Positions 30,664 through 48,593 of a stretch of DNA of 64,000 nt are shown piece after piece. How positions within the stretch are numbered: the stretch's first letter is position 1; every line of letters starts with the position of its first letter. The DNA comes from an uncultured Gammaproteobacteria bacterium (GTDB lineage Bacteria > Patescibacteriota > Patescibacteriia > Magasanikbacterales > GWA2-37-8), in the NCBI GenBank assembly GCA_964641245.1, contig CAZXML010000003.1:17395-81394 (forward strand), read 5' to 3'. Position numbers and translations under genes: made by a program. Under the pieces are notes generated by a model. It searched no databases, was not told the DNA's origin, and saw nothing but the letters and a program-made list of their open reading frames with translations.

Positions 30664-30686
30664 ATTTTAATTGTTTACGCAACATA

Positions 30687-30770
30687 CCCCTCTCTCTGTC
30701 TCTCCCCTAAAAGGGGAGAGGACGATTGAGTGAATTGACATTGCCTGTCGTGGTCGTTCCTCCCCGCTTT
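30687..30770. repeat. Family E palindromic element (cccctctctctgtctctcccctaaaaggggagagg) plus a related tcgttcctcccc half
   Basis: Other copies at 43515-43625 and 45792-45886. Confidence 0.8.
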
Positions 30771-32578: not shown

Positions 32579-33934
32579 CTAAACGACTTTCGCAAATATA
32601 CATTTCAAATACTCCCCTTCGGTAAAAGCCACCAATTCCGGATGGTCTATGCCGTGGGTATAGGTTTCCAAAACCTGCAAAGTCTGGCGCGCCCGGCCGG
32701 CTGATTCGGATAACATATATCTAAAATCAGATAAAGTAACGTGGGCCGAACAAGAGGCTGTAATCAGTACGCCACCTGGTGATAATAATCGTAAAGACGC
32801 TTCGTTTATTTTTTTATAACCAATTAATCCTTCCTGAACTTTGCGCCTGTCTTTTACAAAGGCCGGCGGATCCAGGATGATGATGTCAAATTGACTTGAA
32901 CCTGACCTCACCCTGCCCTCTCCTCGCAGGAGAGGATTTATCGACTCCTTCTCCTTTGAGGAGAAGGTTGGGATGAGGTCTGGATTATTCAAATACTGCT
33001 TCACATCCCCGCAAATAAATTCGCATTTTTTTAAATCTAATTTATTAAGTTTTACGTTTTCTTGGGCCAATTCCAAGGCGCTCTGAGAAGAATCCACGCT
33101 AATCACATGCTTGGCTCCCCCGCCCAAAGCATAGACGCTAAACCCGCCGGAATAAGAAAAACAGTTCAAAACATTTTTATCTTCCGCGTATTTCATCAAC
33201 GCCTGTCTTTTATCGCGCTGGTCCAGAAAAAAACCGGTTTTTTGCCCGCCAATCACATCCACCCAGAACTTAAATCCGTTTTCAATAATTTTTATTCTCT
33301 CAGGCACTTTGCCATACAATAGGCCTGCGAGCGCTGTTTTATTTGTCATTCCGACGTCGAAGGAGGAATCTCTGTCTGGTTGTTTCGCGGAAGGGTGAGA
33401 CAGAGATCCCTCGTCGGCTACGGCCTCGCTCGGGATGACAATGTGCCGCTTAAGCCTCTGCGCCACATCCGATCTTTCATAAATACCGGTTGGTTTTAAG
33501 ATTTTTTTTAAGGCGTCAACGATTTTATCTTTCCACACTTCCATGCCCTGCGTATGAAACTGCAACACCAAATAATCCGCGTATTTGTCTACAATCAACC
33601 CGGGCAACAAATCGTTTTCACTGTGAACCATGCGGTAAGAATCCGTATTTTTACTAGCCACAAAATTCTTTCTGATGGCATAGGCCTGATTAATTCTTTT
33701 TTCAAAAAATTTGTCATCCACCGTTTCCTGTTCGTCCCAACTCCAAAGCCGCACCGCTATTTGCGAATAAGAATTAAAATATCCCTGCGCCAGAAATTGA
33801 CCTTCTTCGTTTACCAAAATCACCGCTTCGCCGCTTTTTAGGCCTTCGGGAATCTGTTTGAGCGCGCCAGAAAATACCCACGGGTGACGGCCAAGGATAG
33901 GACCAATTCTTTGTTTTTGAACAACCAACTTCAT
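32579..33934 (-). CDS. rlmI: 23S rRNA m5C methyltransferase RlmI-like (PUA + class I MTase) with two in-frame palindromic-repeat insertions
   Basis: Start MKLVVQKQRIGPILGRHPWVF. FDIIILDPPAF and SAM-binding GGFS motifs. Insertions at 32903-32979 and 33344-33440. Confidence 0.75.
   Translation of the reverse strand: MKLVVQKQRIGPILGRHPWVFSGALKQIPEGLKSGEAVILVNEEGQFLAQGYFNSYSQIAVRLWSWDEQETVDDKFFEKRINQAYAIRKNFVASKNTDSYRMVHSENDLLPGLIVDKYADYLVLQFHTQGMEVWKDKIVDALKKILKPTGIYERSDVAQRLKRHIVIPSEAVADEGSLSHPSAKQPDRDSSFDVGMTNKTALAGLLYGKVPERIKIIENGFKFWVDVIGGQKTGFFLDQRDKRQALMKYAEDKNVLNCFSYSGGFSVYALGGGAKHVISVDSSQSALELAQENVKLNKLDLKKCEFICGDVKQYLNNPDLIPTFSSKEKESINPLLRGEGRVRSGSSQFDIIILDPPAFVKDRRKVQEGLIGYKKINEASLRLLSPGGVLITASCSAHVTLSDFRYMLSESAGRARQTLQVLETYTHGIDHPELVAFTEGEYLKCIFAKVV
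32903..32979. repeat. Family F palindromic element inside rlmI (in-frame)
   Basis: gacctcaccctgccctctcctcgcaggagagg ... ctccttctcctttgaggagaaggttgggatgaggtc. Encodes PTFSSKEKESINPLLRGEGRVRSGSS. Confidence 0.75.
33344..33440. repeat. Family B2 palindromic element inside rlmI (in-frame)
   Basis: tgtcattccgacgtcgaaggaggaatctctgtc ... gagacagagatccctcgtcggc...cgggatgaca. Related copy at 35529-35624. Confidence 0.8.
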
Positions 33935-34019
33935 CATGATAAATGGATTATTAATAATTGAGAGTATACCAAACAAAAACACCCAGCGCAATGGCCGGGT
34001 GTTTTCTTAATATAAATTT

Positions 34020-35384
34020 TTAGAGACTGTTAAGCGCGGCACGGGTGGCTGGACCAACCCAACCTGGGTATGGTTTGAGGCTCTGCGCTTTCTGAAAGGC
34101 TACCACCGCGGCTCTAGTAACTCCGCCAAAGAATCCGGTATCGGTAGGATAGGTGAAATAACCCAACTCTCTAAGTTTGGCTTGTAACGCCTTTACCTCG
34201 TTGCTTCTGGAACCTACTCTAAGCTGCGTACGGAACACGGCAACCGAAGAAGCGGTTGATGGAAGTGAAACTGAAGCTGGGGTTGCAGGTGTGGCTGGTG
34301 TGGCAGGAACAGCAGGAGAAACACCGGGAACTGCCGGAGTAGCCGGTGTGGCCGGAGTAGCGGGTACCCCAACGTTTCCACCGCCAACCATTGGTGCTCC
34401 ACAACCTTCGGTGGTCGCGCTGACAGTTGAAGACCAAGCTGTTTCTACAAGATCCCCATTCCGTCCCTTAACGCGGAATGAATGAGAAGTATTGCATGGA
34501 ATTTGAAGCACACTTAAACTGGTGGCTGTAGTCCATCCGGTATTAGTACCGGCGGTGATGTCTTCAGCATAGTAAGCGGTAGATTCTCCGGTCCATGAAA
34601 AAGCAAAATTATTTGACCCGGCAGTAACCGCTGCAGAAGAAGGGGTGTTGGCAAGAGTATACGCGCTAACACCAGTGCTGTAACTCGTTGTCTGGGTACT
34701 ATTACCATTAACGGCAGCCACCTGAATGGTATGCAAGGTATTCGCGGTTAATCCAAGAGTGGTAGTCCCACTGTTAGACCCAAGGTCCACAAATTCTATA
34801 GTGGCGGTAGCCGCTCCCCAAGTACTGTTGGATTGTAAGTACAAACCCTGAGCAGAATCAAAAACTATATAACTTGTCCCTACCGGATTGGTTGACGAGT
34901 TAACAGTTAATGTAAAGGTAGTGGGAGCGGTGGAAGTTGCGGTGGAAACTGTGCCCGGTGTAGCGGCATAAGTCCAAGCAGTGGTGCTGGCAAAAGGAGC
35001 TGATGAAGAAGCGACCGCGTCGCCACCACCTGCTCTAAAGTAGTAAAGTGTGTCTGTTGCCAAACCCACGAACATAAAAGCTCCCCAATAACCTTCAGTT
35101 ACTGTGGTGGTCGCTTGCGTGGTTGTTGGACCCCAGGTAGTGCCATTAGTAGAACTGCTGAAACCGAAAATCTGACTGGAGTCGTTGGAACTGGTGGAAA
35201 ACCGAAACAGAATCGCGTTCGTGGTGGTTACGGTAGCTGTTCCGGTAGTGGAATTTATCGCCGTTGCGGCGTTGGCGCTACTAATTTTCCAAACCAAAAA
35301 AGTTAGACTTAAAAGCCCAACCAAAAAGGCGAACACTAACATTTTAGATGTGTTTATTTTTTCCCGCAGAGAAGACAATGTCAT
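34020..35384 (-). CDS. Secreted/anchored Thr/Ser-rich surface protein with Fn3-like region, PAT-repeat linker and C-terminal peptidoglycan-binding domain (PG_binding_1)
   Basis: N-terminal TM/signal. (PATPAT)n linker. C-terminus VKALQAKLRELGYF...GFFGGVTRAAVVAFQKA. Confidence 0.55.
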   Translation of the reverse strand: MTLSSLREKINTSKMLVFAFLVGLLSLTFLVWKISSANAATAINSTTGTATVTTTNAILFRFSTSSNDSSQIFGFSSSTNGTTWGPTTTQATTTVTEGYWGAFMFVGLATDTLYYFRAGGGDAVASSSAPFASTTAWTYAATPGTVSTATSTAPTTFTLTVNSSTNPVGTSYIVFDSAQGLYLQSNSTWGAATATIEFVDLGSNSGTTTLGLTANTLHTIQVAAVNGNSTQTTSYSTGVSAYTLANTPSSAAVTAGSNNFAFSWTGESTAYYAEDITAGTNTGWTTATSLSVLQIPCNTSHSFRVKGRNGDLVETAWSSTVSATTEGCGAPMVGGGNVGVPATPATPATPAVPGVSPAVPATPATPATPASVSLPSTASSVAVFRTQLRVGSRSNEVKALQAKLRELGYFTYPTDTGFFGGVTRAAVVAFQKAQSLKPYPGWVGPATRAALNSL

Positions 35385-35528
35385 AGATTAAAAGTTTAAT
35401 CCCAAATTAAGTTTGGGAATGAGATTTTTAAAGTTGATAATATTATAACACATAATTAAAAGCGCTACCAAATACAACCTGTGGATAACTAACAAAAAAG
35501 ACCCGCCGAGCGGCGGGTCTTTTTTGTT

Positions 35529-35624
35529 TGTTATTCCGACAACGAAGGAGGAATCTCTGTCCTCTTCGCTTCGAAACCACCAGACAGAGATCCCTCGTCG
35601 GCGCGAGCCTCGCTCGGGATGACA
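35529..35624. repeat. Family B2 palindromic element
   Basis: ttattccgacaacgaaggaggaatctctgtc ... cagacagagatccctcgtcggcgcgagcctcgctcgggatgaca. Confidence 0.75.
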
Positions 35625-35627
35625 AAA

Positions 35628-36485
35628 CTATTTCAACTGCGCCTCTACTTCCGAAGCAAAGTCACAGCCGACTTTGGTTAGGCCTTCGCCTAACTCAAAT
35701 CGTTCCATTCTGGCAATGGTAACATCGGCTCCGAGTAATTTCTGAATTGTTTTTTCTTCATCTTTGATAAACGGCTGTTCCAACAAACAAACTTCGCTGT
35801 AAAACTTGTCTAGCTTGCCTATTAGGATTTTTTCGATGGCGGCTTCCGGTTTGCCTTGTTGTTTTAGCTGTTCGGTGTAAATTTCTTTTTCTTTTTCTAC
35901 AACTTCTACCGGGACTTCGTCGCGACTGATATATTTTGGATTGGCCGCGGCGGCGTGCATGGCAATATCATTGGCCAAAGCAGAATCGGTAGTATTTTTT
36001 AATAGTATCAAAACCGAAATCTTTCCGCCCAAATGAGAATAGGCGCCAAAAACATCGGCGTCGGTTTTTTCCACCACAGCGAAACGGCGCAGAACAATTT
36101 TCTCTCCGATTTTTGCGGTGAGATTATTTATTTTTTCGGTAACAACCGGAGACATTGCCTCTTCCGTTGAAGCCGGCTTGTTCTCCAGTAAATTATCGGT
36201 TAATTCATTTACCAATTTTTTGAAGTCTTCGTTTTGCGCCACAAAATCGGTTTCGGAATTCACCTCTAAAACCACAGCGGTGTTGCCGCTTACTTTTACT
36301 TGCGTAGCGCCTTCGGCCGCAATTTTGTCTGTGCGTTTGGCCGCTTTCACAATCCCTTTTTTGCGGAGCAATTCCCCGGCCTTTTCCATATCCCCTTCGG
36401 CTTCATCCATCGCTTTCTTGCAATCCATCATACCGGCGCCGGTAAGGGAACGAAGTTTTGCTACGTCTGATGCGCTTATTGACAT
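35628..36485 (-). CDS. tsf: Elongation factor Ts
   Basis: 285 aa. LRSLTGAGMMDCKKAMDEAEGDMEKA. Confidence 0.9.
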   Translation of the reverse strand: MSISASDVAKLRSLTGAGMMDCKKAMDEAEGDMEKAGELLRKKGIVKAAKRTDKIAAEGATQVKVSGNTAVVLEVNSETDFVAQNEDFKKLVNELTDNLLENKPASTEEAMSPVVTEKINNLTAKIGEKIVLRRFAVVEKTDADVFGAYSHLGGKISVLILLKNTTDSALANDIAMHAAAANPKYISRDEVPVEVVEKEKEIYTEQLKQQGKPEAAIEKILIGKLDKFYSEVCLLEQPFIKDEEKTIQKLLGADVTIARMERFELGEGLTKVGCDFASEVEAQLK

Positions 36486-36596
36486 ATTAAAATAAAATTA
36501 TGATTATGAAATTAAGAAATTTACTCACCAACGCTCGCTGAAATTATTTCCTAATTTCTTAATTTCGCGAGGCTAGCCGAGCATATTTCCGGTTAT

Positions 36597-37379
36597 TTAC
36601 ACCGACTCATCTTTCTTCAGCGCCCGTCTCTCAATCTTTACCGCGTCGTGCTTTACCGGTTCTTCCTTGGCGCGTTCCAACTTTTTCTTTTCAAATTCTT
36701 TACGGCCTTCGTTTACGGCTTCGGCTACCATTTCCACAATTAATTTTATGGAGTTGACGGCATCGTCGTTGGCCGGGATGGCGTAGTTTACCTGTTCCGG
36801 ATTAACGTTGGTGTCGCAGACGGCCACGGTTGGCACTTCGGTTCTGGTAGCTTCGGCTAAAGCGGTTTTTTCGGTGCGCATATCGGCAATGTAAAGCGCG
36901 TCCGGCATTTTATCCAAAGAAGTTAAACCGATTAAATATTTATCCAATTTTTCCAATGTTTTTTTCATGGTGACCTGTTCTTTTTTGGTATATTTTTCGA
37001 TTTCTCCGGTGGCAAACATTTCTTTTAAGTTGTGATATTTTTTCAAACGGCGTTTCACTTCATCAAAATTTGTTAACAATCCGCCGATCCAGCGTTCTAC
37101 CAAATAAGGCATTTCACAACTGATGGCGGCCGCTTTGGTGATTTCTCTGGCCTGACGTTTGGTGCCGACAAATAAAATAACTTGACCTTTTGCGGCCAAA
37201 TTTTTGACGTAATTCAGAGCCTTCTCAAGCTGTTCTTGAGTTTTTTCCAAATCGATAATATGCACGCCGTTGCGTACGCCAAAGATGTATTGTTCCATCT
37301 TGGGGTGCCAGCGTGATTTTTGATGGCCAAAGTGTACTCCGGCCTTCAACATTTCCAACAATGTTGGCATTTTACTCAT
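36597..37379 (-). CDS. rpsB: 30S ribosomal protein S2
   Basis: 260 aa. LLEMLKAGVHFGHQKSRWHPKM. Confidence 0.95.
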   Translation of the reverse strand: MSKMPTLLEMLKAGVHFGHQKSRWHPKMEQYIFGVRNGVHIIDLEKTQEQLEKALNYVKNLAAKGQVILFVGTKRQAREITKAAAISCEMPYLVERWIGGLLTNFDEVKRRLKKYHNLKEMFATGEIEKYTKKEQVTMKKTLEKLDKYLIGLTSLDKMPDALYIADMRTEKTALAEATRTEVPTVAVCDTNVNPEQVNYAIPANDDAVNSIKLIVEMVAEAVNEGRKEFEKKKLERAKEEPVKHDAVKIERRALKKDESV

Positions 37380-37516
37380 ATTTTCCTTATAATTGCCTCC
37401 TAGCCTTGCCCCGGAATGGTCCGTAGGGAGGAAAAAAGTGGCTAGCGAGAGATTAAATTAAGATACGGACAGTATATATGAAGGAAAGAAATGAGTCAAG
37501 AGGTGTGTAAGCTGGT

Positions 37517-37544
37517 TTGACAAACCGCTAAAAAGTGATAGACT
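37517..37544 (+). promoter_or_regulatory. Sigma70-like promoter TTGACA-16-TAGACT for the TPR protein gene
   Basis: ttgacaaaccgctaaaaagtgatagact. RBS AAAGGAGGG 7 nt before ATG 37605. Confidence 0.55.
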
Positions 37545-37604
37545 ATGCAGTTGTCCGGGAAGGCGTTTTCCGGACAAAAAGTTTACCCAAAGGAGGGTCG
37601 AAAA

Positions 37605-39671
37605 ATGAGCAAGTTCATGCTGGTTTGTGTGGTCGTGGCAGTGGCGTCTTTTTCTTCAGCGAAGGATGCGGCCGCGCAGGACACGGCCCCAACCAAGCTG
37701 ATGGTGGCTCCGTTCCAAAATACGGGGTATGTGCGCGGGCAGGACTACATGCAGTTGCAGTTTGCGGCCACGGTGGCCGAACGTTTGGAAGACGTTTCCG
37801 GCTACGAGGTGGCCGACGGACCGCTAGTTCTGACTGCGGATTTGGCCGAACTGGCCACCATTCGCAACAACAAGGGCAAGATGTCGGATTTCAACTTGGC
37901 CGAAGCCAATCGGCTGGCCATGTCACTCGGCGCTTCTGTTTTCATCACCGGCCGTTACAACGGAACGGAGGAAAAGTGGTCGCTCACCGCCGAAGTCTAC
38001 TCGGCCCAAACAAACGGCCCGCGCCTAATTGGTAGCGCCACGGTGCATGGCAGTCTCATGACCAAAATCATGGTTCGCAAGCGAGCCAGATACATCGTGG
38101 ACATTCGCGCCATTCACAACCTGCTTTCGCAAGCGGTGGCCGGTGCCATGCGCGATGCCGGGTTGCCGAATTGTGACCTGGTTCAAACGACTCTGGAAAC
38201 TCCGTCCACCAACGATTCATGGGCGTTCATCCAACTGGGTCTGGCCTACATCCGCTACTTTAACCCGCCGGACGTAAAGCATCATCGCAGTACTTTTGAA
38301 CTCGCAAAGTATGCGGTACTGGTGGATCCAAAGTATGCGGAAGCGCAACGGTTCTACTCGGTCATGCTGGAAAAGCGCGCCGAAGAAAAACCGGCGGACC
38401 GTGGAAAAATTCTGGGACTCGTCCGTCTGCATTACGAAATGTCGCTGGCCCTCCGGCCAAACGACACGCGTACTCTGATTCCGCTGGCGAAAGTGGAATT
38501 GCAGTCAAAAAACGAAGTCATCGCCAAGGAGTACCTGGTACGCGCGGTGACAATTCATCCCAAGGACCCGGAACCGCACTTCTGGCTGGCCAAGGTTTAC
38601 CTGAAGCTGGAAAACTCGGATGCGGCCATTGCCGAATTTGAGATTGTGCGCACTCTGTCCCCCGCCCGTCTGGACGCGCGGAGAGAATTGGTCCGGCTTT
38701 ACAATGTACGGCTTCGGTACCTGGACTCGGCCACGGAGCTTCGTGTTATCGTTGCCGCCGAACCAAGCGATTTGCAGGCGGCCTTTGCTCTGCCGGCAGT
38801 TCTGCGCGCAGCCGATGAAATTCATTTGGCCGTGCAAGCCTACACAGACGCGGAACAACGGTTCCCCAAAGAAAAACGGTTCGCCAAATTCCGCGCCGAT
38901 GTGGAGCGGAGAGAAGGCGGATTGTTCGTCTGGGTAGATGCAATTAACGAAGGCAAATATACCGTTGAGAACATCAACGATATCCGCGATATTTTTCAAC
39001 TGGCCGCCAACGATGCCGCTATGGACTTTAGCCTGAACGGCAAAGAAGCCTGCGTCAACGGCCGCGGCGCGTCATCTATGTTGCTGGCGCAAGAAAATGA
39101 ACGGGTTCACTTGGAGGAACTGCAAGCCTTGCGCGCGTACGCGAATACTATCAGAACGGTCATTAAGCAAGGCAACGACACCGCGTTCACCACCAACGAA
39201 CGCGACGATGCCGTAACTTTGCTGACCGCTCTGAAAACATCCGAACGCGACAGCCGCGAAATGCAAATGCAGACCGCCAAGACCATTCAATCGCTGATGC
39301 GGAAAAAGAGCTGCAAAGAAATTGGCCCGGACGTTCGCATGGCGACGGTTAACGAACTGGAAAAACGGAACCTAAATTGGCAAGTGGTATTGCCGCCCGT
39401 AAAGTCAAAATCGTACGTACTGGAGATTCCCACATCTTCGGTCCGGCCGATTCACTTATTCGTGAACAATAAGACCGGACATTCCAAATGTTATTTGTTC
39501 CTGGACGGCAAACAGTTAGGCGTTATTGCCGCCGGCCAAACGAATAAGGACTTTACCGTCAGTATCGGCAATCACACCTACTGCCTGGAAGAAAAAGCGG
39601 AAGACTGTGACAAGCCAGGAACTATCCGCCAGATGTTCTTTTCCGAAGGAATTATTTTGGAGAGAAAGTAG
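37605..39671 (+). CDS. GC-rich secreted TPR-repeat protein
   Basis: Start MSKFMLVCVVVAVASFSSA (signal peptide). Central TPR-like helical repeats (KVYLKLENSDAAIAEFEIV...). GC about 57%. Confidence 0.55.
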   Translation: MSKFMLVCVVVAVASFSSAKDAAAQDTAPTKLMVAPFQNTGYVRGQDYMQLQFAATVAERLEDVSGYEVADGPLVLTADLAELATIRNNKGKMSDFNLAEANRLAMSLGASVFITGRYNGTEEKWSLTAEVYSAQTNGPRLIGSATVHGSLMTKIMVRKRARYIVDIRAIHNLLSQAVAGAMRDAGLPNCDLVQTTLETPSTNDSWAFIQLGLAYIRYFNPPDVKHHRSTFELAKYAVLVDPKYAEAQRFYSVMLEKRAEEKPADRGKILGLVRLHYEMSLALRPNDTRTLIPLAKVELQSKNEVIAKEYLVRAVTIHPKDPEPHFWLAKVYLKLENSDAAIAEFEIVRTLSPARLDARRELVRLYNVRLRYLDSATELRVIVAAEPSDLQAAFALPAVLRAADEIHLAVQAYTDAEQRFPKEKRFAKFRADVERREGGLFVWVDAINEGKYTVENINDIRDIFQLAANDAAMDFSLNGKEACVNGRGASSMLLAQENERVHLEELQALRAYANTIRTVIKQGNDTAFTTNERDDAVTLLTALKTSERDSREMQMQTAKTIQSLMRKKSCKEIGPDVRMATVNELEKRNLNWQVVLPPVKSKSYVLEIPTSSVRPIHLFVNNKTGHSKCYLFLDGKQLGVIAAGQTNKDFTVSIGNHTYCLEEKAEDCDKPGTIRQMFFSEGIILERK

Positions 39672-39725
39672 ATATTATAAATTAGACTACTCCCTTCCGA
39701 CGCATTTTGTCGGGGGGGAATTTTT

Positions 39726-40679
39726 TTATTTAGATATTTTTCGCTGTCTCGTTCTATTTTTTAGGTACCGCTCAACGGCTTCTTTTGAAGTTAACCAATC
39801 TCTGCCTTCTTTGTACGCTTCCAACTTTCCTTGCCTGGCAAGCAAGTTTAGATATTTTGCAGAAAATGGAGTTATTTTCGATATTTCAACCAGCGATACA
39901 AATTTTTCTTGTTTTGTAGTTGCCGGAGTTAAAGTTTTTAGATAAATATCAAGCGATCGCTCTATGGATTGAGCGATAAATTTTACTAGCGGTTCATATT
40001 TGCCTTTGTCCGCCTTATCCAGCACATCATAATATTTTTTTCGGTCGGTTTTCATAATGACCACTAATGGGTACCCGGCTTGCATCAAAAACAGATTCAT
40101 CGTCAAGCGCGCGGTTCGGCCATTGCCGTCAAAAAAAGGATGGATATGGACTAGTCTATGATGTAACAAAGCAGAAAGTTCAATAATATTCAACTTGTTT
40201 TTTTGTGAATTCAGCCAAATAATTAAATCCCTCATCAGATTAGGTATTTGTAATGCGTCCGAAGGAGTATGATCAGCGCCGCCAATAATTACATTGGCAT
40301 TTCTGTATCGGCCGGCCCACTCTTTGTCGGTCTCCTGCAAAATAATTTGGTGTAGATTTTTTATAAGCATTTCAGAAACAGTGTGCTTTTTGTCTTTATC
40401 TATCAAGTCATATAGATATTCCAGCGCGGCGTGGTGGTCTTTTGCCTCCAGATGATCTTTTAGGGGTTTTCCTTTCACCGTCAGACCCTCGTTTATGACC
40501 AAAAAAGTCTCCTTTAAAGTTAAAGAGTTGCCTTCAATAGCATTGGAGTTATATGTCATTTCGATTTGAAATTTTTCTCGAAGTTTTTGTACCGCAGATT
40601 TCGGTAACGGACGAAGTTTGTTAAGTTTGGCGAGTTTTTCTTCTAATCGAGCTTTTATGATTGGTGATAGGTAAGTCAT
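39726..40679 (-). CDS. Fic-family protein (AMPylase-type Fic/DOC domain with C-terminal wHTH)
   Basis: HPFFDGNGRTARL core motif. N-terminal SNAIEGN matches the (S/T)xxxE(G/N) intrinsic inhibitory motif. Confidence 0.85.
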   Translation of the reverse strand: MTYLSPIIKARLEEKLAKLNKLRPLPKSAVQKLREKFQIEMTYNSNAIEGNSLTLKETFLVINEGLTVKGKPLKDHLEAKDHHAALEYLYDLIDKDKKHTVSEMLIKNLHQIILQETDKEWAGRYRNANVIIGGADHTPSDALQIPNLMRDLIIWLNSQKNKLNIIELSALLHHRLVHIHPFFDGNGRTARLTMNLFLMQAGYPLVVIMKTDRKKYYDVLDKADKGKYEPLVKFIAQSIERSLDIYLKTLTPATTKQEKFVSLVEISKITPFSAKYLNLLARQGKLEAYKEGRDWLTSKEAVERYLKNRTRQRKISK

Positions 40680-40714
40680 ATAAAATGCTTAATATGGTTT
40701 AGTTAGATATTCAC

Positions 40715-40743
40715 AGTATACCATATTAAGGAATTGCGGTCAA
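40715..40743 (-). promoter_or_regulatory. Sigma70 promoter TTGACC-17-TATACT (extended TGG) for fic
   Basis: Minus strand reads ttgaccgcaattccttaatatggtatact. Confidence 0.6.
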
Positions 40744-40881
40744 GTTTTATATTGATGCCTATCATAACACAAAAGACTGACGTTAAGCAAACCAGTCTCC
40801 ATTGACTTTTTTCCCTTTTTGGAGTAAAACTAGACTAGCTAATACTCTTTGACAATTGAACGAAAAAAAGGAGAAACGTCA

Positions 40882-43473
40882 ATGTGGAACAAGGTTCGGG
40901 CAGTAGTTTGGTTTTTTGTTATTGTAGCAATTACCTGCTGGATTTGGGACTGTTTTCAAACCACAATTTCACCTGGATTGGTGTGGATTACCCTGCCGAC
41001 GATAGAATTCGCCCGGTGGTCTTTCACCCTAAAGATCCCACCCCTGCCCTTCTACCCAGCCGCCATTTTCTTTTTGTCGGCAATCAGAGCCCGCCCGCCC
41101 TACTTCCGGGAAAACCCGAACATGATTCGGTTCTACCGGTTGCGAAATCTGTCATACGCGATATCAGTCGTGGTTACAACTCTCTTTGTGGTATCTCTCC
41201 AAAATAACATAATCGCCGACTACCATCAGGAACTCGCGGATGTGTTGGCGTTCAAACCGCCAATTTCCACCCGGGTCTATGACAGTACCGGATGGGAAGA
41301 AATCTGCCGGTTCAGTATGGAAGACCGCGACTACATTTCCATTGACGAAATTCCCCAAATTGTACGCTATGCGGTGGTGGCGGCCGAAGATCAGCGCTTT
41401 TACGAACACGACGGCGTTGATCCAATTGCCGTCATCCGGGCGGCGCGCAAAAATTACGAAAATGACCAAATCAAGCAGGGTGGTTCTACTATCACCCAGC
41501 AGGTCATCAAACTAAAGGTAATTAAGTCTAATGAGCAAACCAAGGCGCGCAAGATTCGGGAAGTGTTTCTGGCTACCAAGCTGGAACAAATGGCTTCCAA
41601 GGACAAAATCCTGGAAATCTACCTGAATCACGTTTATCTGGGACGCGCCTACGGCATCAAAGCCGCGGCCATGGCCTATTACGGCAAGAACGTAAAAGAC
41701 ATGACCATCGGCGAAGCCGCCTTTTTGGCCGGCATGCCCAAAGCGCCATCCAACTTTTCTCCTTCTATGAACTTTGCCCGCGGCAAAGAACGGCAAGCCT
41801 ATGTGCTGGGCCGGATGCGCGAGCAGGGTTTCATTACTGAAGAAGAGATGCGGACGGCGCTCCATGAAGCGACAGTTGTAATTAACAATCAGCGTCCGCT
41901 GAACCGAACCTCCGCCCCCTACTTCTGCGAGCACCTGCGTCAACAATTAGAGCGGGAATATGGTCAGGACCTGATATACAAAAAGGGACTGGTTGTTTTC
42001 ACCACTCTAAATATGAAGATGCAACGCGCCGCCGAAGCCGCGGTCCAAAACGGACTAGTGGATTTGGAACGCCGGCTTGGCTTCAACGGTCCGGAAGGAC
42101 ACGATGAAGCTTTTACCGGTGTCTGTGATTCTATTGGCGAAGATGTTGCTGACGGCAGTTTTGAGAACGCGCAAGTGGTCTCAAACACCGGCGACAAAAT
42201 CATGGTCTGCGCGCGCGGAAACGTTTTCCCGATGTATCAGGAAGATGTAAAGCATATTCAGACATGGGAAAAAAATACCGACAGCCAATTGGTTGCCGGC
42301 GACAACATGACGGTACGAATTATTACTGTTGCAGAGAAAGTGCTGAAGAAGAAAAAGGAAACTCACGAAGTCCGCTACGCCATTTCGGCGCGCCGGACCG
42401 GCGGGGCCAATAACGCGGAAGCTCTGCAGGCGGCCATGGTGGTGGTTGATCCAAAAAACGGCGCCCTACTGGCGCTGATTGGCGGATACGACTACAACGA
42501 AAACCAATTCAACATGGCCATTCAGGCAAAACGCCAGCCCGGATCGTCGGTCAAGATATATTTCTACCTGGCCGCGCTGATGCACGGTAAAACGGTAACC
42601 GATATCGTAAACGATCACGCTGTTTGTTACCCGTCCGCATCCGGAATTTGGTGTCCGACAAACTACGTCGGCCCAAACACTAAGAATCAATATATGGGAG
42701 CGGTCGACCTTCGCACCGCCCTGGCCAAATCGCTCAACTCCATCTCGGTGCAATTGCTTCACGAGGTTGGAGTGGATGAAGGCATCCGGACAATGCGCAA
42801 GCTGGGAATTACCTCGCCCATTGAACGGGTTCTGCCCATTGCGGTTGGCGCTATCGACATTACACCATGGGAGCACACTTACGGATACGCAACGGTAGCG
42901 GCACAAGGCCGTAAAATGCCACACCAGTGTTATCATCCGGGCCAAAAAGTCTGCGATGCCAATTCCGGTGTGTTTATTCTGAAAGTATTGAACGCGGCTA
43001 ACGGAGAAGTAATTTACGAATACGTTCCGCCAAAACCGGAACAAGCCGTCCCCGCCGCCGACGCCTACACCATGACTTATCTGATGGAAGGCGTGGTGCA
43101 ATTCGGCACCGGACGCAAGGCGCAGGAACTGCAAAGACCGGTGGCCGGAAAAACCGGCACCACCAATGAATTCAAGGACACTTGGTTCATGGGTTTCACC
43201 ACCGACGTGGTGGTGGGAGTCTGGGTTGGACGACAGCGTCCGATTACGATTGCCAAAGAGGCAACCGGCGGTACCGTGGCTCTGCCCATCTGGCTGGCCT
43301 TCATGAAAGAGGCTCATCCGGACACGCCGGCCCGCGAGTTCCCGGTTCCCAACGACATCATATTTGTAGCCGACCCGGACGGCAAGCTCATTCCCTACCG
43401 GCGCGGAACAGTTCCCGCCAAAAACCTAAGCAGTACAACTACTCCGATAGTTATTGAATCAAACGAATTCTAA
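40882..43473 (+). CDS. Class A penicillin-binding protein (PBP1A-type: GT51 transglycosylase + transpeptidase), GC-rich
   Basis: Start MWNKVRAVVW, 8 nt after AGGAG. EDQRFYEHDGVD (GT51). SSVK, SLN and KTGTT transpeptidase motifs. Confidence 0.85.
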   Translation: MWNKVRAVVWFFVIVAITCWIWDCFQTTISPGLVWITLPTIEFARWSFTLKIPPLPFYPAAIFFLSAIRARPPYFRENPNMIRFYRLRNLSYAISVVVTTLFVVSLQNNIIADYHQELADVLAFKPPISTRVYDSTGWEEICRFSMEDRDYISIDEIPQIVRYAVVAAEDQRFYEHDGVDPIAVIRAARKNYENDQIKQGGSTITQQVIKLKVIKSNEQTKARKIREVFLATKLEQMASKDKILEIYLNHVYLGRAYGIKAAAMAYYGKNVKDMTIGEAAFLAGMPKAPSNFSPSMNFARGKERQAYVLGRMREQGFITEEEMRTALHEATVVINNQRPLNRTSAPYFCEHLRQQLEREYGQDLIYKKGLVVFTTLNMKMQRAAEAAVQNGLVDLERRLGFNGPEGHDEAFTGVCDSIGEDVADGSFENAQVVSNTGDKIMVCARGNVFPMYQEDVKHIQTWEKNTDSQLVAGDNMTVRIITVAEKVLKKKKETHEVRYAISARRTGGANNAEALQAAMVVVDPKNGALLALIGGYDYNENQFNMAIQAKRQPGSSVKIYFYLAALMHGKTVTDIVNDHAVCYPSASGIWCPTNYVGPNTKNQYMGAVDLRTALAKSLNSISVQLLHEVGVDEGIRTMRKLGITSPIERVLPIAVGAIDITPWEHTYGYATVAAQGRKMPHQCYHPGQKVCDANSGVFILKVLNAANGEVIYEYVPPKPEQAVPAADAYTMTYLMEGVVQFGTGRKAQELQRPVAGKTGTTNEFKDTWFMGFTTDVVVGVWVGRQRPITIAKEATGGTVALPIWLAFMKEAHPDTPAREFPVPNDIIFVADPDGKLIPYRRGTVPAKNLSSTTTPIVIESNEF

Positions 43474-43476
43474 CCT

Positions 43477-43517
43477 TCCCCTCCGTTAGCGCAGTGCTGG
43501 CGGAGGGGTTTTTTTTA
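43477..43517 (+). terminator. Rho-independent terminator
   Basis: cccctccg...cggagggg stem followed by T8. Confidence 0.75.
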
Positions 43518-43625
43518 TACTTCGTCGTTCCTCCCCCTTTTAGGGGGAGGGCAGGGTGGGGGTATTTGTTCGTGGTACAACCGCCGATATACCCCTCTCT
43601 CTATCTCTCCCCTAAAAGGGGAGAG
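43515..43625. repeat. Two family E palindromic elements (ccccctttta ggggg / cccctctctctatctctcccctaaaaggggagag)
   Basis: Seen directly. Same family as 30687 and 45792. Confidence 0.8.
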
Positions 43626-43652
43626 AACCCCACCGAGTCCAGTCGGCTCTTA

Positions 43653-43681
43653 TTGACAACCAAAACAAATAATGCTACACT
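43653..43681 (+). promoter_or_regulatory. Sigma70 promoter TTGACA-17-TACACT for rpmE
   Basis: ttgacaaccaaaacaaataatgctacact. Confidence 0.55.
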
Positions 43682-43794
43682 TTAGGCACTAATTACGCTT
43701 TACCTCATTCTTTTATAATTGTAACGAAGAGAGAGAAAAGGTCGCTCGTGACCTTTTCCGAACGAGTTGCAATTATATGAAATCTTAATTTCAT

Positions 43795-44100
43795 ATGCAG
43801 AAAAAAATACATCCGGAATACAACAATGACACAGAGGTTTCATGCGCTTGCGGCAATAAATTTATTACCGGCAGTACCATGAAGACCATCCGCGTGGAAC
43901 TTTGCAACAAGTGCCATCCTTTTTATACCGGCAAACAAAAATTTGTAGACACTGCCCGCCGTGTAGAAAAATTCCAAGAACGCACCGACAAGAAAACTGC
44001 CGCTTCCGCTGTCCGCAAAGGCAAGAAAGTAAAGAAAGCAGCCACAGCTGTAAAGAAGACCGCCAAGAAAGCGGAGAAAAAAGAAAAATCCAAAGCTTAG
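43795..44100 (+). CDS. rpmE: 50S ribosomal protein L31 with K-rich C-terminal extension
   Basis: [19 protein letters not shown]...[12 protein letters not shown]. Confidence 0.9.
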
Positions 44101-44116
44101 CTTTATCAAATTTAAA

Positions 44117-44156
44117 AAACAGACTACAATATCTTCGGGTTGAGTCTGTTTTTTAG
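44117..44156 (+). terminator. Rho-independent terminator
   Basis: aacagactacaatatcttcgggttgagtctgtt + T6. Confidence 0.75.
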
Positions 44157-44228
44157 TAAATAGCAATAAACAATGAACAAAAAGCAACCGACCGTTTAAT
44201 TTGTTAATTGTTAATTGCTAATTGTTAG

Positions 44229-45323
44229 TTGCTAATTAATCCTATGAACAACAAATATAAAGATCTACAATCCAAATTCGCCAAGCTGGAAGCCGATTTG
44301 CAAAATCCGGTTGTGCTTGGTGATTCCAGAAAAGTAAAAGAAGTTGCCCAGGAATATAATGAATTAAAACCGGCCATGGAAAAAATAAAAGAACTGGCCG
44401 GAGTGGAAAACAGCATCGCGGAAACGGAACTGATTATAAAAGGCAATGATGAAGAAATGAAAGAAATGGCCACTGCAGAAATTGATGATTTAGAAATTAA
44501 GAAATTAAATTTAGAAAAAGAGCTGGACGAAATGACCCGTCCGCAGGATCCGTTTGATAAAAAAAATGTGATTGTGGAAATACGCGCCGGCGTGGGTGGA
44601 GATGAGTCCGCTCTTTTTGCCGCGGATTTGTACCGCATGTACAGCCGTTATGCCGAAAATAAAGGCTGGAAAGTAAACACGCTGGATTCAAACAAAATCG
44701 GCATCGGCGGTTTCAAAGAAATTATATTTTCCATAAAAGGCAAGAACGTCTACAAAGATTTAAAATATGAAATGGGCGTGCACCGCGTGCAAAGAGTTCC
44801 GGACACGGAAAAAGCCGGACGCATTCATACCTCCACCGCCACGGTAGCTGTGATGCCGGAAATAGAAGAAACCGAATTTAAAATTGATCCAAAAGATTTG
44901 CGCATAGACACTATGACAGCCGGCGGACACGGCGGTCAAAGCGTGAACACCACTTACTCTGCCGTGCGCCTTGTGTATATTCCAACCGGCATGATCGTGC
45001 AGTGCCAAGACGAACGTTCACAAACCGCCAACCGCGAAAAAGCCATGGCCGTAATGCGCTCCCGCTTGTTTGCCATAGAACAGGAAAGAAAAATGAAAGA
45101 ACTGACCGAAAAAAGGCGCGCCCAAATTGGCAGCGGCGACAGAAGCGAAAAAATCCGCACCTACAATTTCCCTCAAGATCGCATTACCGACCACCGCATT
45201 CACCAAAGCTGGAACAGCATCCCCCGAATTTTAGACGGCGAACTAGAACCGATTATTTTGGCCGTGCGCGCGGCGGATTACGCGGGGTTGGATTATTCCG
45301 GCACGGATGAAGACGAAGAATAA
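44229..45323 (+). CDS. prfA: Peptide chain release factor 1
   Basis: GGQ motif ([18 protein letters not shown]). Followed by prmC. The true start may be MNNKYKDLQ at 44247. Confidence 0.85.
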
Positions 45324-46182
45324 TATGTTGGATTTTGATTTGCTAAAGGCGCATGCCATAAAAAAACCAAAAGAATTTTTATACTCTCATCCCGAATATC
45401 GTTTATCAGTTTGGCAAAAACTGCGTTTAAAATATTTTCTCTCCCTGCGCAAAAAGGGCTATTCCGTAGCCGTCATTACCAAGCATAAAGAATTTTACGG
45501 CTTGGATTTTTTTGTGAATAAACACGTTTTAATCCCCCGCCCCGACACCGAGTTGATGGTGGCAGAAGCGATCGAAGAAATTAAAAAAAATGATAAGATA
45601 ATTTTAGTTGATGTTGGTACCGGAAGCGGGTGCATACCAATTTCTATTTTAAAAAATATACCAAACCAAATACAAACATTTGCGACCGATATTTCGAACG
45701 CGGCTTTGCGAGTAGCGAAAAAAAATGCCCGAATACATAATGTGAACATTAAATTTTTCCACGGTAACTTGCTTGAACCAATTTTCAAAAACCCCTCTCT
45801 CTGTCTCTCCCCTTATAGGGGAGAGAGGAACGAACTCCTCTCTGTAGTTCCCTCCCCTATAAGGGGAGGGGCGAAGGGTGGGGTTTTCATCACCGCCAAC
45901 CTCCCCTACCTTACCAAACAACAATTTCAATCCGAACCGAGCATTCAAAAAGAACCAAAAATCGCACTCACGGCAAAAAATAACGGCTTGGCTTTATACG
46001 AAGAATTATTTAATCAAATAAAAAATGCCGGTCTGACAGCAACTATACTTACAGAAATCGACCCTTCTCAAACCGATGCAATCTCCCAACTTATAAACCA
46101 ATATCTTCCCGGCTCAAAAATTGAAATAAAAAAAGACCTCGCCGGGCGAGATCGTTTAGTAAAAATTGTCATGTCATCCTGA
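45307..46182 (+). CDS. prmC: Release factor glutamine methyltransferase PrmC/HemK with in-frame repeat insertion
   Basis: VLIPRPDTE and VGTGSGCI motifs. The NPPY box reads NLPY. A 30-aa insertion ([30 protein letters not shown]) is encoded by a family E palindrome. The stop codon is supplied by a family A repeat. Confidence 0.8.
45792..45886. repeat. Family E palindromic element pair inside prmC (in-frame)
   Basis: cccctctctctgtctctccccttataggggagagg ... ttccctcccctataaggggaggggcgaagggtgggg. Confidence 0.8.
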
Positions 46183-46237
46183 ACTTGTTTCAGGATCTGT
46201 CACCAACCAAAGATGCTGAAATAAATTCAGCATGACA
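46173..46237. repeat. Family A palindromic element
   Basis: tgtcatcctgaacttgtttcaggatc ... gatgctgaaataaattcagcatgaca. Confidence 0.85.
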
Positions 46238-46243
46238 ATTGAT

Positions 46244-47323
46244 TTAATTCGTCACCAAAACATTAACATTGGCCGGCACCACTTCCACCCACGTATTGCC
46301 GGGAATTAAAACTACTTCTCTCCCTATGGGAGATCCCCCGGAGGGGGATTTTTCATAAGTGTAAAATCTGGTGCGGGCGGTAAGTGAACTTTTCTTCCAG
46401 GTTCCATAAATAACCGCGCCTTTCTTTAAAATTATCGCCTCACCGCTACCAACAGTGGTAACATCCACTCGCCCCTTATCGTCGCCATTTATTTCTCTTA
46501 CGCCGGTAATTTGCACTAAAATATTCCGCGCCCGAACCTCGGACCCGTCTTTGTCTGTTTCTTTAATACCATTTCTGGCGCGGCTGTAATTTAAATTTTT
46601 GGCGTCATACGTCCAAACGACTTCGTAACTTTCGCTAAAAGGAATTTTTAACCCGCCTTTTTTACCAATTGTCTGCCCCACCAAACGGGAATACTTCCAG
46701 GCTTTGTCCGCGGTAAACAAAGAACTTTTGTTGCCGTATTTATTAATAATTTCTAACCAATTACCATTTCCGGTATAAAGATTGTGCGGCGCCGGCCGTT
46801 CTTGGCTTCTATTGTAATACTGTCCCCAAAAAAATTCGTTGGCATCAAAAATATTTCTTACTTTAATTAAATTTAAAGCTTCCGGCGAACCGCCCGAGTG
46901 CATATATAATCCCCGGCCGTATTCCTGCATCCAGTCCAAAAAGTAAGCACGGGCGCTGCGCACCGGGCCGACTTCCGCCACCGCTTGCTTACTGTCAAAA
47001 ATAGCCAGGTAGCGGGTAAGGCCGCCTTCTACCGGCGCTTCGTAAACTATTTTGGCTTTGGAAACTCCGGATTCCAGACGAGCGTCTGGATGATTGTCTA
47101 CCATTACTCCCACCACCTGCAAAACTGAATCTACTTTTTTATTCACCGCTTTTCCGTCTAACGGATTTACATATTTAACGGCGGTGATTGTAAAATCGTT
47201 ATTGCTTATAGCCTGCAATGATTCTTTGGAAGGATATAAATAAAAAAACACCACCCCAATTCCGATTACGGAAATTAGAATTAAAACAATGATTGGCGGA
47301 ATTGGCCAGGGCTTACGCTTCAT
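46244..47323 (-). CDS. DUF3048-like (YerB-type) lipoprotein/secreted protein
   Basis: 359 aa. N-terminal TM. APVEGGLTRYLAIF motif. Confidence 0.45.
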   Translation of the reverse strand: MKRKPWPIPPIIVLILISVIGIGVVFFYLYPSKESLQAISNNDFTITAVKYVNPLDGKAVNKKVDSVLQVVGVMVDNHPDARLESGVSKAKIVYEAPVEGGLTRYLAIFDSKQAVAEVGPVRSARAYFLDWMQEYGRGLYMHSGGSPEALNLIKVRNIFDANEFFWGQYYNRSQERPAPHNLYTGNGNWLEIINKYGNKSSLFTADKAWKYSRLVGQTIGKKGGLKIPFSESYEVVWTYDAKNLNYSRARNGIKETDKDGSEVRARNILVQITGVREINGDDKGRVDVTTVGSGEAIILKKGAVIYGTWKKSSLTARTRFYTYEKSPSGGSPIGREVVLIPGNTWVEVVPANVNVLVTN

Positions 47324-47334
47324 AATTATAAAGC

Positions 47335-47419
47335 TGTCATCCTGAACTTGTTTCAGGATCTTCGTTATTGTTCCGTAGATGCTGAAACAAGTAGATCCTG
47401 AAACAAGTTCAGGATGACA
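47335..47419. repeat. Family A palindromic element (three-hairpin variant)
   Basis: tgtcatcctgaacttgtttcaggatc..gatgctgaaacaagtagatcctgaaacaagttcaggatgaca. Confidence 0.85.
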
Positions 47420-47423
47420 TTAA

Positions 47424-47466
47424 GAAAACAGACTATACAATTTATAGTATAGCCTGTTTTTAAAAT
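47424..47466. terminator. Bidirectional terminator after rplY
   Basis: aacagactatacaatttatagtatagcctgtt with T-runs on both strands. Confidence 0.6.
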
Positions 47467-47477
47467 TTATTAAAGGT

Positions 47478-48197
47478 TTATTTCTTTTCCTCTTTCTTTT
47501 CTTCCTTCTTAGCTCCGGCTTCCGGTTTAGCGGCGCCTTCAGCGGCAGCTCCTTCTGCGCCCTCTTCTTCTTTCTTCTTGCCGGCAGATTCAATCTTGCT
47601 TAAGTCAACCGGTTTGGAAGCTGTTTCCATGGCCTTAATTTCATCTTCGGTTAAGGCGGCGGTGGCTTTGGCGATTAAATCTTCAGCATGAGGACTGGTG
47701 ATGGTGATTCCGGCCGGTACAACCAAATCTTTAATTTTGATAACATCGTCGAATGTTTTTAAAGCGGTCAAATCAACATCGATGTGGGAAACCAAATCTT
47801 TCGGCAAACATTTTACTTCCACATTTTCCACACTGCGCATTAAAGTTCCGCCTTGAGCTTTAATAACCGATGATTCGCCCACAAAGCGTAACTCTACCGT
47901 AGCAGTCATAACTTTGTTCATGTCGATACGGCGCAAGTCAACGTGCACAATGCGGTCGGAAACCGGATCGTACTGAATATCCTGAATCAAAACTTTTCCG
48001 TCGGCTTTGTCGCCCAAAAGCAAATCAATCAAACTGGCCTCGCCGGCTTCGGCGTAAAGTTTTACAAACTCATCATGATTTAAAGCAACGGAAGTGGCCG
48101 GCGCGCCCATACCGTAAACTACGGCCGGGATAAGGGTCTTGGTGCGCATTTTTTGTCCTTGTTCTGTTCTGGCGGTGGCGGATATTTTGAGGGACAT
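47478..48197 (-). CDS. rplY: 50S ribosomal protein L25 / general stress protein Ctc with acidic/K-rich C-terminal tail
   Basis: MSLKISATARTEQGQKMRTKTLIPAVVYG. Confidence 0.85.
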   Translation of the reverse strand: MSLKISATARTEQGQKMRTKTLIPAVVYGMGAPATSVALNHDEFVKLYAEAGEASLIDLLLGDKADGKVLIQDIQYDPVSDRIVHVDLRRIDMNKVMTATVELRFVGESSVIKAQGGTLMRSVENVEVKCLPKDLVSHIDVDLTALKTFDDVIKIKDLVVPAGITITSPHAEDLIAKATAALTEDEIKAMETASKPVDLSKIESAGKKKEEEGAEGAAAEGAAKPEAGAKKEEKKEEKK

Positions 48198-48222
48198 ATG
48201 ATAATATTATTTTGTCATGCTG

Positions 48223-48270
48223 AATTTATTTCAGCATCTACGTAGATCCTGAAACTAGTTCAGGATGACA
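48223..48270. repeat. Family A palindromic element
   Basis: tgtcatgctgaatttatttcagcatc..gatcctgaaactagttcaggatgaca. Confidence 0.85.
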
Positions 48271-48593
48271 GTTAAAAAATTTGGACTGTTGATAAATTTA
48301 TGCCCTTCAATTGTTTCATCAATCGTAAGGGGCGGCAGTTTGTATAATTTTTGGACGTCTTTTAAACTTAGGTCAGTAATCATTCCTACCGTGCTCATGC
48401 CTTTGGGCATCATCATTACCATGGCCATAAAGTGGCTTTGGCAATGCGCGCAGGTAAAATGGACAAATCTGGCGTCGCTTTCATTTATAAACAACTTGCC
48501 GGCAGATTTGTAGTCATGACCGCAAATCGGACAATGGCTAATCAGTTTTAAAGTTTTTCGCCAAGAATCGGCTTTGCTATTGTTTGGCAACAT
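48255..48593 (-). CDS. Hypothetical zinc-ribbon protein
   Basis: 112 aa. CPICGH...CAHCQSH Cys4-type motif. Confidence 0.4.
   Translation of the reverse strand: MLPNNSKADSWRKTLKLISHCPICGHDYKSAGKLFINESDARFVHFTCAHCQSHFMAMVMMMPKGMSTVGMITDLSLKDVQKLYKLPPLTIDETIEGHKFINSPNFLTVILN

Follow-up and report, generated by a model that had tools for sequence, protein, structure and literature searches.

The prmC gene of an uncultured bacterium, deposited under the label Gammaproteobacteria and placed by GTDB in the Magasanikbacterales (Patescibacteriota), contains a 100-nt composite palindrome that adds 30 codons in frame. Probably this is an intragenic dimer of the repetitive extragenic palindromic (REP) type, carried as a tolerated passenger loop by an apparently intact PrmC, the methyltransferase whose substrate is the glutamine of the GGQ motif in release factor 1 (RF1). 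The gene lies in a stretch of 64,000 nt (positions 17,395 to 81,394 of the forward strand of contig CAZXML010000003.1, GenBank assembly GCA_964641245.1), which is termed the window, and coordinates are those of the window unless another sequence is named. Other stretches of DNA are designated by L numbers and proteins by P numbers. An earlier sequence-only reading had described a palindromic repeat pair in prmC that encodes 30 amino acids, next to a catalytic motif considered degenerate, and had proposed an orthologue alignment, structural modelling of the insert and a check of the GGQ motif of RF1. The repeat pair is confirmed by its codons (45793-45882), by the 100-nt palindrome that spans them, by further copies of the repeat family, and by the contigs L036 and L001.

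The palindromic dimer in prmC

The repeat family to which the insert belongs is termed family E. The features of prmC that concern the insert are as follows.

45325-46182, plus strand: prmC, 285 amino acids counted from the ATG at 45325.
45788-45887, no strand assigned: REP-like dimer of family E, a 100-nt composite palindrome AAAACCCC...GGGGTTTT, recognized by its inverted arms, its fold, its open frame and its absence from L003, L033, L034 and L035.
45793-45882, plus strand: inserted codons P157-G186 (30 amino acids), from the translation; a predicted disordered loop.
45804-45826, no strand assigned: hairpin of unit 1, TCTCTCCCC-TTATA-GGGGAGAGA, perfectly paired.
45850-45870, no strand assigned: hairpin of unit 2, CCCTCCCC-TATAA-GGGGAGGG, perfectly paired and preceded by GTAGTTCC.
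45883-45897, plus strand: strand beta4 (VFITA), between insert and motif, assigned by DSSP as strand 187-191 in an AlphaFold2 model.
45898-45909, plus strand: motif IV NLPY, a clade-wide variant of NPPY, from the translation and orthologue comparison.

The insert stands between the protein segments NLLEPIFKN and VFITANLPY, and its peptide is rich in Pro, Ser, Gly and Arg. At the DNA level the element consists of two arms of 39 nt each (45788-45826 and 45849-45887) that are 82% complementary, with terminal inverted repeats at the ends. The unit hairpins have stems of 9-10 bp and loops of 3-5 nt and occur in dispersed copies, as do REP palindromes, which are imperfect and have short loops and stems of 5-13 bp. 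At the RNA level the element folds with a calculated energy of -68 kcal/mol (z = -7.8 against shuffled sequences), and UUUU lies directly 3' of the hairpin. In each orientation exactly one of the three reading frames is free of stop codons, and prmC uses that frame.

The sequence TTTTCA is found on both sides of the prmC copy, which is not so for the copies in L004, L005 and L007, and comparison of the prmC copy with these three revealed no consistent target-site duplication or conserved target motif. A search of Rfam with the prmC element gave only sub-threshold matches, to microRNA-like and whalefall-1 families, which are generic hairpin matches. The element was not flagged in a terminator scan that did flag a mini-hairpin at 46334-46347 and the hairpins of a second repeat family, family A, that is described below. 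An intron, an intein and a translational bypass element were also considered and rejected: Pfam shows no Hint domain, Rfam shows no above-threshold match, and every genic copy of the repeat lies in a single stop-free frame.

The insert is genuine and is not an artefact of assembly or sequencing, because an independent assembly is identical through prmC and a diverged orthologue present in two assemblies (L001 and L002) has the same insert in frame. The independent sequence, L036, is a JGI contig from a different metagenome. It is 99.83% identical to the window over 13.3 kb (35306-48572), and none of the 23 differences falls in prmC or in the adjacent repeats. A sequencing error that merely creates frame continuity, the possibility that the sequence-only reading had named as a refutation, is ruled out by L036 and by L001/L002.

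The NLPY motif and the loop that receives the insert

Motif IV of PrmC is canonically (D/N/S)PP(Y/F/W), and in the window protein it reads NLPY. Since this tetrapeptide is nearly invariant among relatives, NLPY is, as judged by sequence comparison, the clade's own form of motif IV and not a product of decay. It is present in all 119 other proteins of the 120 closest homologues, with or without an insert. The homologue search relies on shared words; an exhaustive HMMER search through 1.84 billion cluster representatives added 145 representatives with identities as low as 42%, and all but one of them, a 197-amino acid fragment, have NLPY (144/145). The Magasanikbacteria-like clade as a whole (P0002-P0265) has NLPY in place of NPPY in 263 of 264 sequences. 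Among Trm14 homologues from Pyrococcus, too, motif IV has been reported to occur naturally as NLPY (PMC3177210).

Other signatures of the enzyme are intact. The window protein retains every one of the 28 columns that are invariant in the family alignment, including D96, G98, G100, D122, N192, L193, P194 and Y195, and the glycines of motif I are among them. The PrmC equivalog model TIGR03534 scores 205 bits against a cut-off of 199.1, with the match divided into two stretches; the one that is listed stops short of the insert, at residue 153. An AlphaFold2 model built from 120 aligned sequences has a mean predicted local distance difference test score (pLDDT) of 90.4 and a predicted template modelling score of 0.87. 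It displays the N-terminal helical domain and class I methyltransferase fold of HemK, and the top PDB matches by Foldseek are the HemK/PrmC structures 1nv8, 1sg9, 2b3t and 1t43 (template modelling scores 0.79-0.85). Methylation of the GGQ glutamine of RF1 is most likely retained in this PrmC, whose NLPY is normal for the lineage. The functional oddity that had been suspected from the motif and the nearby insert thus does not hold up, NLPY being typical of the lineage, the insert being absent from most orthologues and the enzyme appearing intact.

In the AlphaFold2 model, residues ~161-186 have a pLDDT of ~50 and no secondary structure; beta4 (residues 187-191) and NLPY (192-195) follow. The insert is separated from NLPY by the five residues VFITA, and not by three as first read. 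It joins the N-terminal end of beta4, and NLPY follows the C-terminal end; the HemK of Thermotoga maritima has nine residues where the window protein has 35. In class I methyltransferases S-adenosylmethionine (SAM) and substrate are bound at the C-terminal ends of the strands. Because the insert is at the N-terminal end of beta4, it is expected on the non-catalytic edge, and by this topology it should project from the edge of the sheet opposite the SAM pocket and the NLPY loop. The proposed modelling of the insert thus gives a HemK fold with a disordered loop before beta4, at the opposite end from the NLPY loop.

The same loop is a recurrent landing site. Across 120 orthologues, the segment from LLEPIF to ITANLPY is 8-16 amino acids long in 99, with a mode of 13, so that the orthologue alignment gives most members only a short linker together with a lineage-typical NLPY. 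In about 20 of the 120, or about one in six, it is 17-41 amino acids long, and the long loops are of several unrelated repeat-like peptide types: PSLC...PSPIRGG, SLRG...ARNDN, VIPAKAGIQ...WIPGQARNDN, SPALSS...PPQRRGQGE, PLPWGEGRGVRG and others. L003, L033, L034 and L035 have no insert at the site, with linkers of 8-14 amino acids. Loop inserts were checked as DNA in six sequences, and these comprise family E copies in the window, L001, L004 and L005, and other types in L037 and L038. The L038 loop is a TGTC-tagged REP dimer, TGTC-ATTCCCGC-AAAA-GCGGGAAT-CCA...TGG-ATTCCGGG-TCAA-GCCCGGAAT-GACA, and that of L037 is a palindrome with a fold of -83 kcal/mol.

In the orthologue alignment other recurrent insertion points in PrmC are found near residues 84-87, 109-115 and 233 of the window protein. 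In the model these are the helix-to-strand connections that precede beta1, beta2 and beta5. Repeat-derived peptides are observed at these secondary sites, e.g. CHAEFISASQKIP, CHCEERNDEAIP... and TCHPEQSEGSSS....

Two further genes of the window have repeat-derived segments. The RlmI homologue (32579-33991, minus strand) aligns with Escherichia coli RlmI (3c0k, E = 1.6e-89) in three blocks and has two extra segments. The first, residues 187-222 (~33326-33433), is a TGTC-type repeat with the peptide VIPSEAVADEGSL...DSSFDVGMTN. The second, residues 335-361, is formed by a hairpin pair at 32917-32967 and is in frame immediately before FDIIILDPPAF, a position equivalent to that of the prmC insert. 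The DUF3048 gene (46244-47323, minus strand) has a 9-amino acid insert, SPSGGSPIG, from two small G/C hairpins at 46317-46350; it is missing in six DUF3048 orthologues (L001, L003, L004, L005, L033 and L035).

Two properties probably explain why the dimer is tolerated in prmC. It sits in the sole stop-free frame of three, and it would occupy the connection from the short helix after beta3 to beta4, which is predicted to lie along the side of the sheet remote from the SAM pocket and from the NLPY loop, where the RF1 glutamine is received. The element would then be translated as a disordered passenger loop of 30 residues. Recurrence of the site would not be related to a function of the inserts; it probably arises because purifying selection clears insertions elsewhere in the enzyme. 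If insertions are random, a selection filter of this kind would lead to such repeated occupation of one loop.

Dispersal of the repeats and resemblance to known elements

A 34-nt pattern of the family E unit is found three times in the window (30687, 43592 and 45792), against 0.00 occurrences expected by chance. The two copies outside prmC are intergenic dimers.

43520-43640, no strand assigned: intergenic family E dimer with the units in opposite order; hairpins at 43530-43550 and 43604-43626.
30684-30770, no strand assigned: intergenic family E dimer with a degenerate right unit, from the repeat family search.

In the prmC and 30684 dimers the heads of the units are toward the centre, and in the 43520 dimer the order is reversed. 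As judged by eye, the head motif CGTC abuts the stem in the 30684 copy and in the left unit of the 43520 copy. By the same assessment the prmC units have TTCGTTCC and GTAGTTCC, the head motif of the prmC copy being TCGT or GTAG, and one family E unit is untagged. The outermost 2-4 bases differ among family E dimers yet stay mutually complementary (AAAA/TTTT, TAAA/TTTA and ATA/TAT), as seen at 45788/45887 and 43560-43595 in the window and in L016 and L009. Complementary ends of this type imply either that the units are homogenized against each other or that the dimers are born by inverted duplication. An open reading frame of the window, 43494-43685, consists of family E repeats and is spurious.

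In species-representative genomes of GTDB, exact matches to the unit are found in only four stretches, three of them in metagenome-assembled genomes (MAGs) of the Magasanikiibacteriota. The fourth is in an assembly labelled Gammaproteobacteria. The assembly GCA_964570525.1 (CAZMYO01; L006 and L037), titled 'uncultured Gammaproteobacteria bacterium', has family E arrays together with an rpmE-prfA-prmC(NLPY)-DUF3048-L25 locus of Magasanikbacteria type. Since this locus (L037) is present, the label of GCA_964570525.1 is doubtful and looks wrong.

The unit was also found in 23 metagenome contigs, mostly from groundwater, and many of these copies are intergenic. Others are in frame within genes. 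A GT2 glycosyltransferase gene (1556-2401 of L009, plus strand, MAG nzgw347) has two in-frame inserts, a single unit and a dimer, NTPSTVLPLNGGGNERYRVVSSALSPVRGEIERGVSG. In-frame family E copies are also present in uvrB (L016 and L021), in genes for a reverse transcriptase (RT)-like protein (L018 and L029) and in that for a membrane protein (L020), and the uvrC gene of L005 (13361-14737) has an in-frame REP dimer of a related repeat. In the two uvrB genes both hairpin units are conserved and the spacer is entirely different. An intergenic copy in the MAG L007 has 37 nt identical to unit 1 of prmC. A dimer-specific pattern, GGGGAGAGNGGAACN{8,30}GTTCCCTCCCC, gave no match in the metagenome contigs, a collection that also lacks L001, and the unit pattern gave none in viral contigs. 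A protein search with the peptides of both repeat orientations likewise retrieved no candidate with shared words.

The dimer in prmC consists of a pair of ~40-nt hairpin units, inverted relative to each other and 100 nt in all, and belongs to a small repeat family that is dispersed in Magasanikbacteria genomes. Closest in kind are the GTAG and CGTC classes of REPs, whose units bear a conserved terminal tetranucleotide, GTAG or CGTC (or TGTC/CCTC). According to Di Nocera et al. (2013; PMC3733652), these REPs are found inside genes of several species, more than half of the inserts are dimers and add 20-30 amino acids, REP termini provide stop codons, and uvrA, uvrB and other repair genes are among the targets. 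The same paper includes Rickettsia RPE-4 and RPE-6 (Rickettsia palindromic elements, RPEs) and Neisseria dRS3 in the CGTC type, and ties the GTAG type to an IS200-like REP-associated tyrosine transposase (RAYT), the CGTC type reportedly being without one. As described there, GTAG and CGTC REPs share with the repeats of the window short G/C-rich hairpins with stems of 8-10 bp and loops of 3-5 nt, inverted dimers that can fold into a long hairpin, and a location that is chiefly intergenic, between convergent or co-directional genes, with a minority in open reading frames. Family A and the L038 insert match the description of CGTC repeats given there. Family E is set apart by its long tail rich in C and T, the resemblance of its head motif to the GTAG and CGTC tags is only loose, and the host belongs to the candidate phyla radiation (CPR; Patescibacteria). 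The recurrent use of one structural loop over many orthologues is a feature of the present repeats that does not appear in the passages of PMC3733652 that were consulted.

The Rickettsia RPE also provides a parallel as a selfish palindrome found in frame in conserved genes of a bacterium with a small genome, with tolerated peptides and a patchy distribution among orthologues. In-frame palindromic repeats in conserved genes are present here in prmC, RlmI and DUF3048 of the window and in GT2, uvrB and uvrC of relatives. The phylum differs, however, as does the form, a 100-nt dimer, no relationship in sequence is expected, and the element works like an RPE without being a member of that family. 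REPINs are REP doublets that form hairpins and are mobilized by RAYT transposases (PMC3116915). The prmC element resembles them in its two inverted REP units with a short spacer, in the doublet acting as a unit and in the conservation of units across loci and genomes. REPINs differ in being essentially extragenic and of high copy number, whereas three loci are found here in 64 kb. The enterobacterial RU-1, RU-2 and RU-3 (PMC2759123) are likewise small intergenic repeats that resemble miniature inverted-repeat transposable elements, are sometimes in open reading frames and add a peptide; they are 103-168 bp long and unrelated, with no demonstrated targeting of a recurrent structural loop. The prmC insert is therefore of a known kind, an in-frame REP/RPE-like insertion, in a host group, the CPR, for which no report of palindromic repeats in proteins, or in those of Magasanikbacteria, was found in the searchable literature.

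The genes next to prmC and the family A repeats at its 3' end are listed below.

44229-45323, plus strand: prfA (RF1), with the PCRF (5.7e-70) and RF-1 (1.1e-40) domains, directly upstream of prmC.
44931-44939, plus strand: GGQ motif of RF1, from the translation; its glutamine is the PrmC substrate.
46172-46198, no strand assigned: family A REP, TGTC-ATCCTGAA-CTTGT-TTCAGGAT-CT, from the repeat family search and comparison of the C-terminus with orthologues.
46211-46237, no strand assigned: inverted family A partner, which abuts the stop of the convergent DUF3048 gene (46244-47323, minus strand).

The end of prfA at 45323 and the start of prmC at 45325 place prmC in linkage with a prfA whose GGQ is retained, as is characteristic of PrmC/HemK genes and as the proposed check of RF1 shows. 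The gene order rpmE-prfA-prmC-DUF3048-L25 is repeated in L003, L004, L033, L035 and L036. Alternative starts of prmC are a JGI call of 291 amino acids from 45307 and an NCBI call of 280 amino acids. In L001 the JGI start of P0002 lies inside a TGTC-type repeat (485-565, TTGTCATCCTGAATGTAATGAAGGATCTCTGTC), which probably makes a spurious N-terminal extension of 27 amino acids.

Family A is clearly tagged with TGTC, and its hairpin has an 8-bp stem that begins with AT and a 5-nt loop. Its core, TGTCATCCTGAAC, starts at 46172 and contributes two bases to Met283, both serine codons (Ser284 and Ser285) and the TGA stop codon (46180-46182). The sequence-only reading had attributed to family A both the stop codon and the last five codons of prmC; the stop is indeed provided by the repeat, and the coding contribution is ~3 codons, or four if a duplicated GTCA is counted. 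Orthologous PrmC proteins end in ...RLVKIF* or ...RLVIIKLLTL*. The 61 nt that separate the convergent prmC and DUF3048 genes are taken up by the family A hairpin pair, through which the C-terminus of PrmC is altered. No repeat stands between the two genes in L003, L004, L005, L033 and L035, where they overlap or abut.

Age, persistence and significance of the insert

The inserts of the window and of L001 are identical at 89 of 90 nt, compared with 72% (337/465) and 71% (207/291) in the two flanks of the gene. At codons for the same amino acid, synonymous differences number 0 of 29 in the insert and 74 of 179 (41%) in the flanks (P ~2e-7), and the block of low divergence ends within ~10 nt of the element on both sides. 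These figures suggest that the window and L001 share an insert far more recent than the gene in which it lies. A recent patch of homologous recombination was considered and is not supported: the left flank is unusually similar in protein sequence between the window and L001, with one amino acid difference in 30, but its synonymous divergence is ordinary (9/29).

Outside the loop, the window is nearer to the insert-free L003, L033 and L035 (76-78% nucleotide identity) than to L001 (71.5%), and L001 is nearest to the insert-free L034. A neighbour-joining tree likewise separates the window protein from P0002. Quartet site counts assign the discordance to residues 1-125 only (53:5), and the half of the protein that bears the insert gives no resolved relationship. 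Codons 1-125 (45325-45699) group the window with L003, L033 and L035, and codons 126-285 (45700-46179) show no resolved grouping, which suggests that prmC is a mosaic.

Perhaps the element spreads to, or is overwritten at, the exact prmC site repeatedly, through site-specific insertion or gene conversion, so that the copy is younger than its gene and moves between lineages. This is a possibility we hold tentatively, and it refines the interpretation as a tolerated passenger rather than excluding it. The near-identity of the two inserts, the sharp limits of the low-divergence block and the nearness of each gene to insert-free relatives all argue for it. So does the insert of L004, which is at the identical nucleotide position and is clearly diverged (roughly 65-70% identity by eye, with a degraded second hairpin); because of this divergence, family E in prmC is not under general sequence constraint. 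The uvrB pair, in which units are kept and the spacer differs, and the 37 nt shared by unit 1 and the intergenic L007 copy are also consistent with turnover. Against it, the discordance is almost wholly in residues 1-125 and could be mimicked by a mosaic gene, there is just one such pair of orthologues, and the dimer-specific search, in a collection that also lacks L001, returned no identical dimer at another locus. The comparison of insertion sites likewise shows neither a target-site duplication nor a conserved target motif, and no transposase was identified, the open reading frames of the window not having been screened for Y1 transposases. REP dimers of these CPR bacteria may not be static passengers, and it is conceivable, if doubtful, that the prmC copy was placed or overwritten at the same nucleotide position in separate lineages, with site-directed insertion and conversion from a shared master copy as candidate routes.

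Several points weigh against the interpretation of the insert as a tolerated passenger. Its conservation between the window and L001 exceeds that of neutral DNA, and an ancient neutral passenger does not predict synonymous differences as unequal as those of insert and flanks. In addition, the length of the element, 100 nt, is not divisible by three and the original linker is missing, and therefore the event was not a clean insertion. The position away from the active site is deduced from class I topology and from the secondary structure of the AlphaFold2 model. Finally, we infer that the insert is translated and that activity is retained, and the neutrality of the element and its means of mobilization are likewise inferred.

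It is improbable that the element is retained for an RNA or DNA role in the prfA-prmC transcript, whether in mRNA processing or stability, in pausing or attenuation, or in the binding of a protein. The 40-bp hairpin is very stable and is followed by UUUU, nucleotide conservation between the window and L001 extends to the loops and the spacer, the uvrB pair conserves the units while the spacer varies, and REPs have often been proposed as RNA elements (PMC3733652). These properties would suit such a role, but most orthologues have no insert and unrelated repeats occupy the same loop, the terminator scan was negative and Rfam matches were sub-threshold, the second hairpin of the L004 copy is degraded, and translating ribosomes would unwind the hairpin.

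Exaptation of the peptide as a new interaction surface or regulatory loop of PrmC appears very unlikely. The insert is in frame at the same site in at least four lineages (window, L001, L004 and L005), and the window and L001 have nearly the same peptide. Yet the segment is predicted to be disordered, its conservation is at the nucleotide level, with zero synonymous changes, and is not protein-specific, its distribution is patchy, it is swapped for unrelated repeat-derived peptides, and the same family is found in unrelated proteins. An artefact, i.e. mis-assembly over the repeat, a frame-restoring sequencing error or a prmC pseudogene, has hardly any likelihood left, for although repeats are a classic cause of mis-assembly in MAGs and the TIGR03534 score is barely over the cut-off, the independent assembly, the diverged orthologue found in two assemblies, the intact reading frame, the retained invariant residues and the confident fold all speak against it.

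For annotation, NLPY is to be noted as a clade-wide variant of motif IV, belonging to the normal PrmC of the lineage. The PrmC model matches the protein in two stretches with a score barely over the cut-off, and the NCBI protein entry is without a name; the repeats also lengthen the N-terminus of a gene call (L001) and create spurious open reading frames (43494-43685). In-frame colonization of proteins by palindromes has precedents in Rickettsia and a small number of other bacteria. It is also common in Magasanikbacteria, where, in the loci compared here, prmC, RlmI, DUF3048, uvrB, uvrC and GT2 genes are affected. The distribution of inserts also provides a map of tolerance, in which a Rossmann-type methyltransferase accepts 20-40 extra residues at connections from helix to strand, along the predicted non-catalytic edge of the sheet. 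If the insert was recently transferred, prmC loci would constitute a tractable system for REP mobility. If turnover takes place, permissive protein loops would offer selfish palindromes a habitat where copies are replaced and pass horizontally between lineages.

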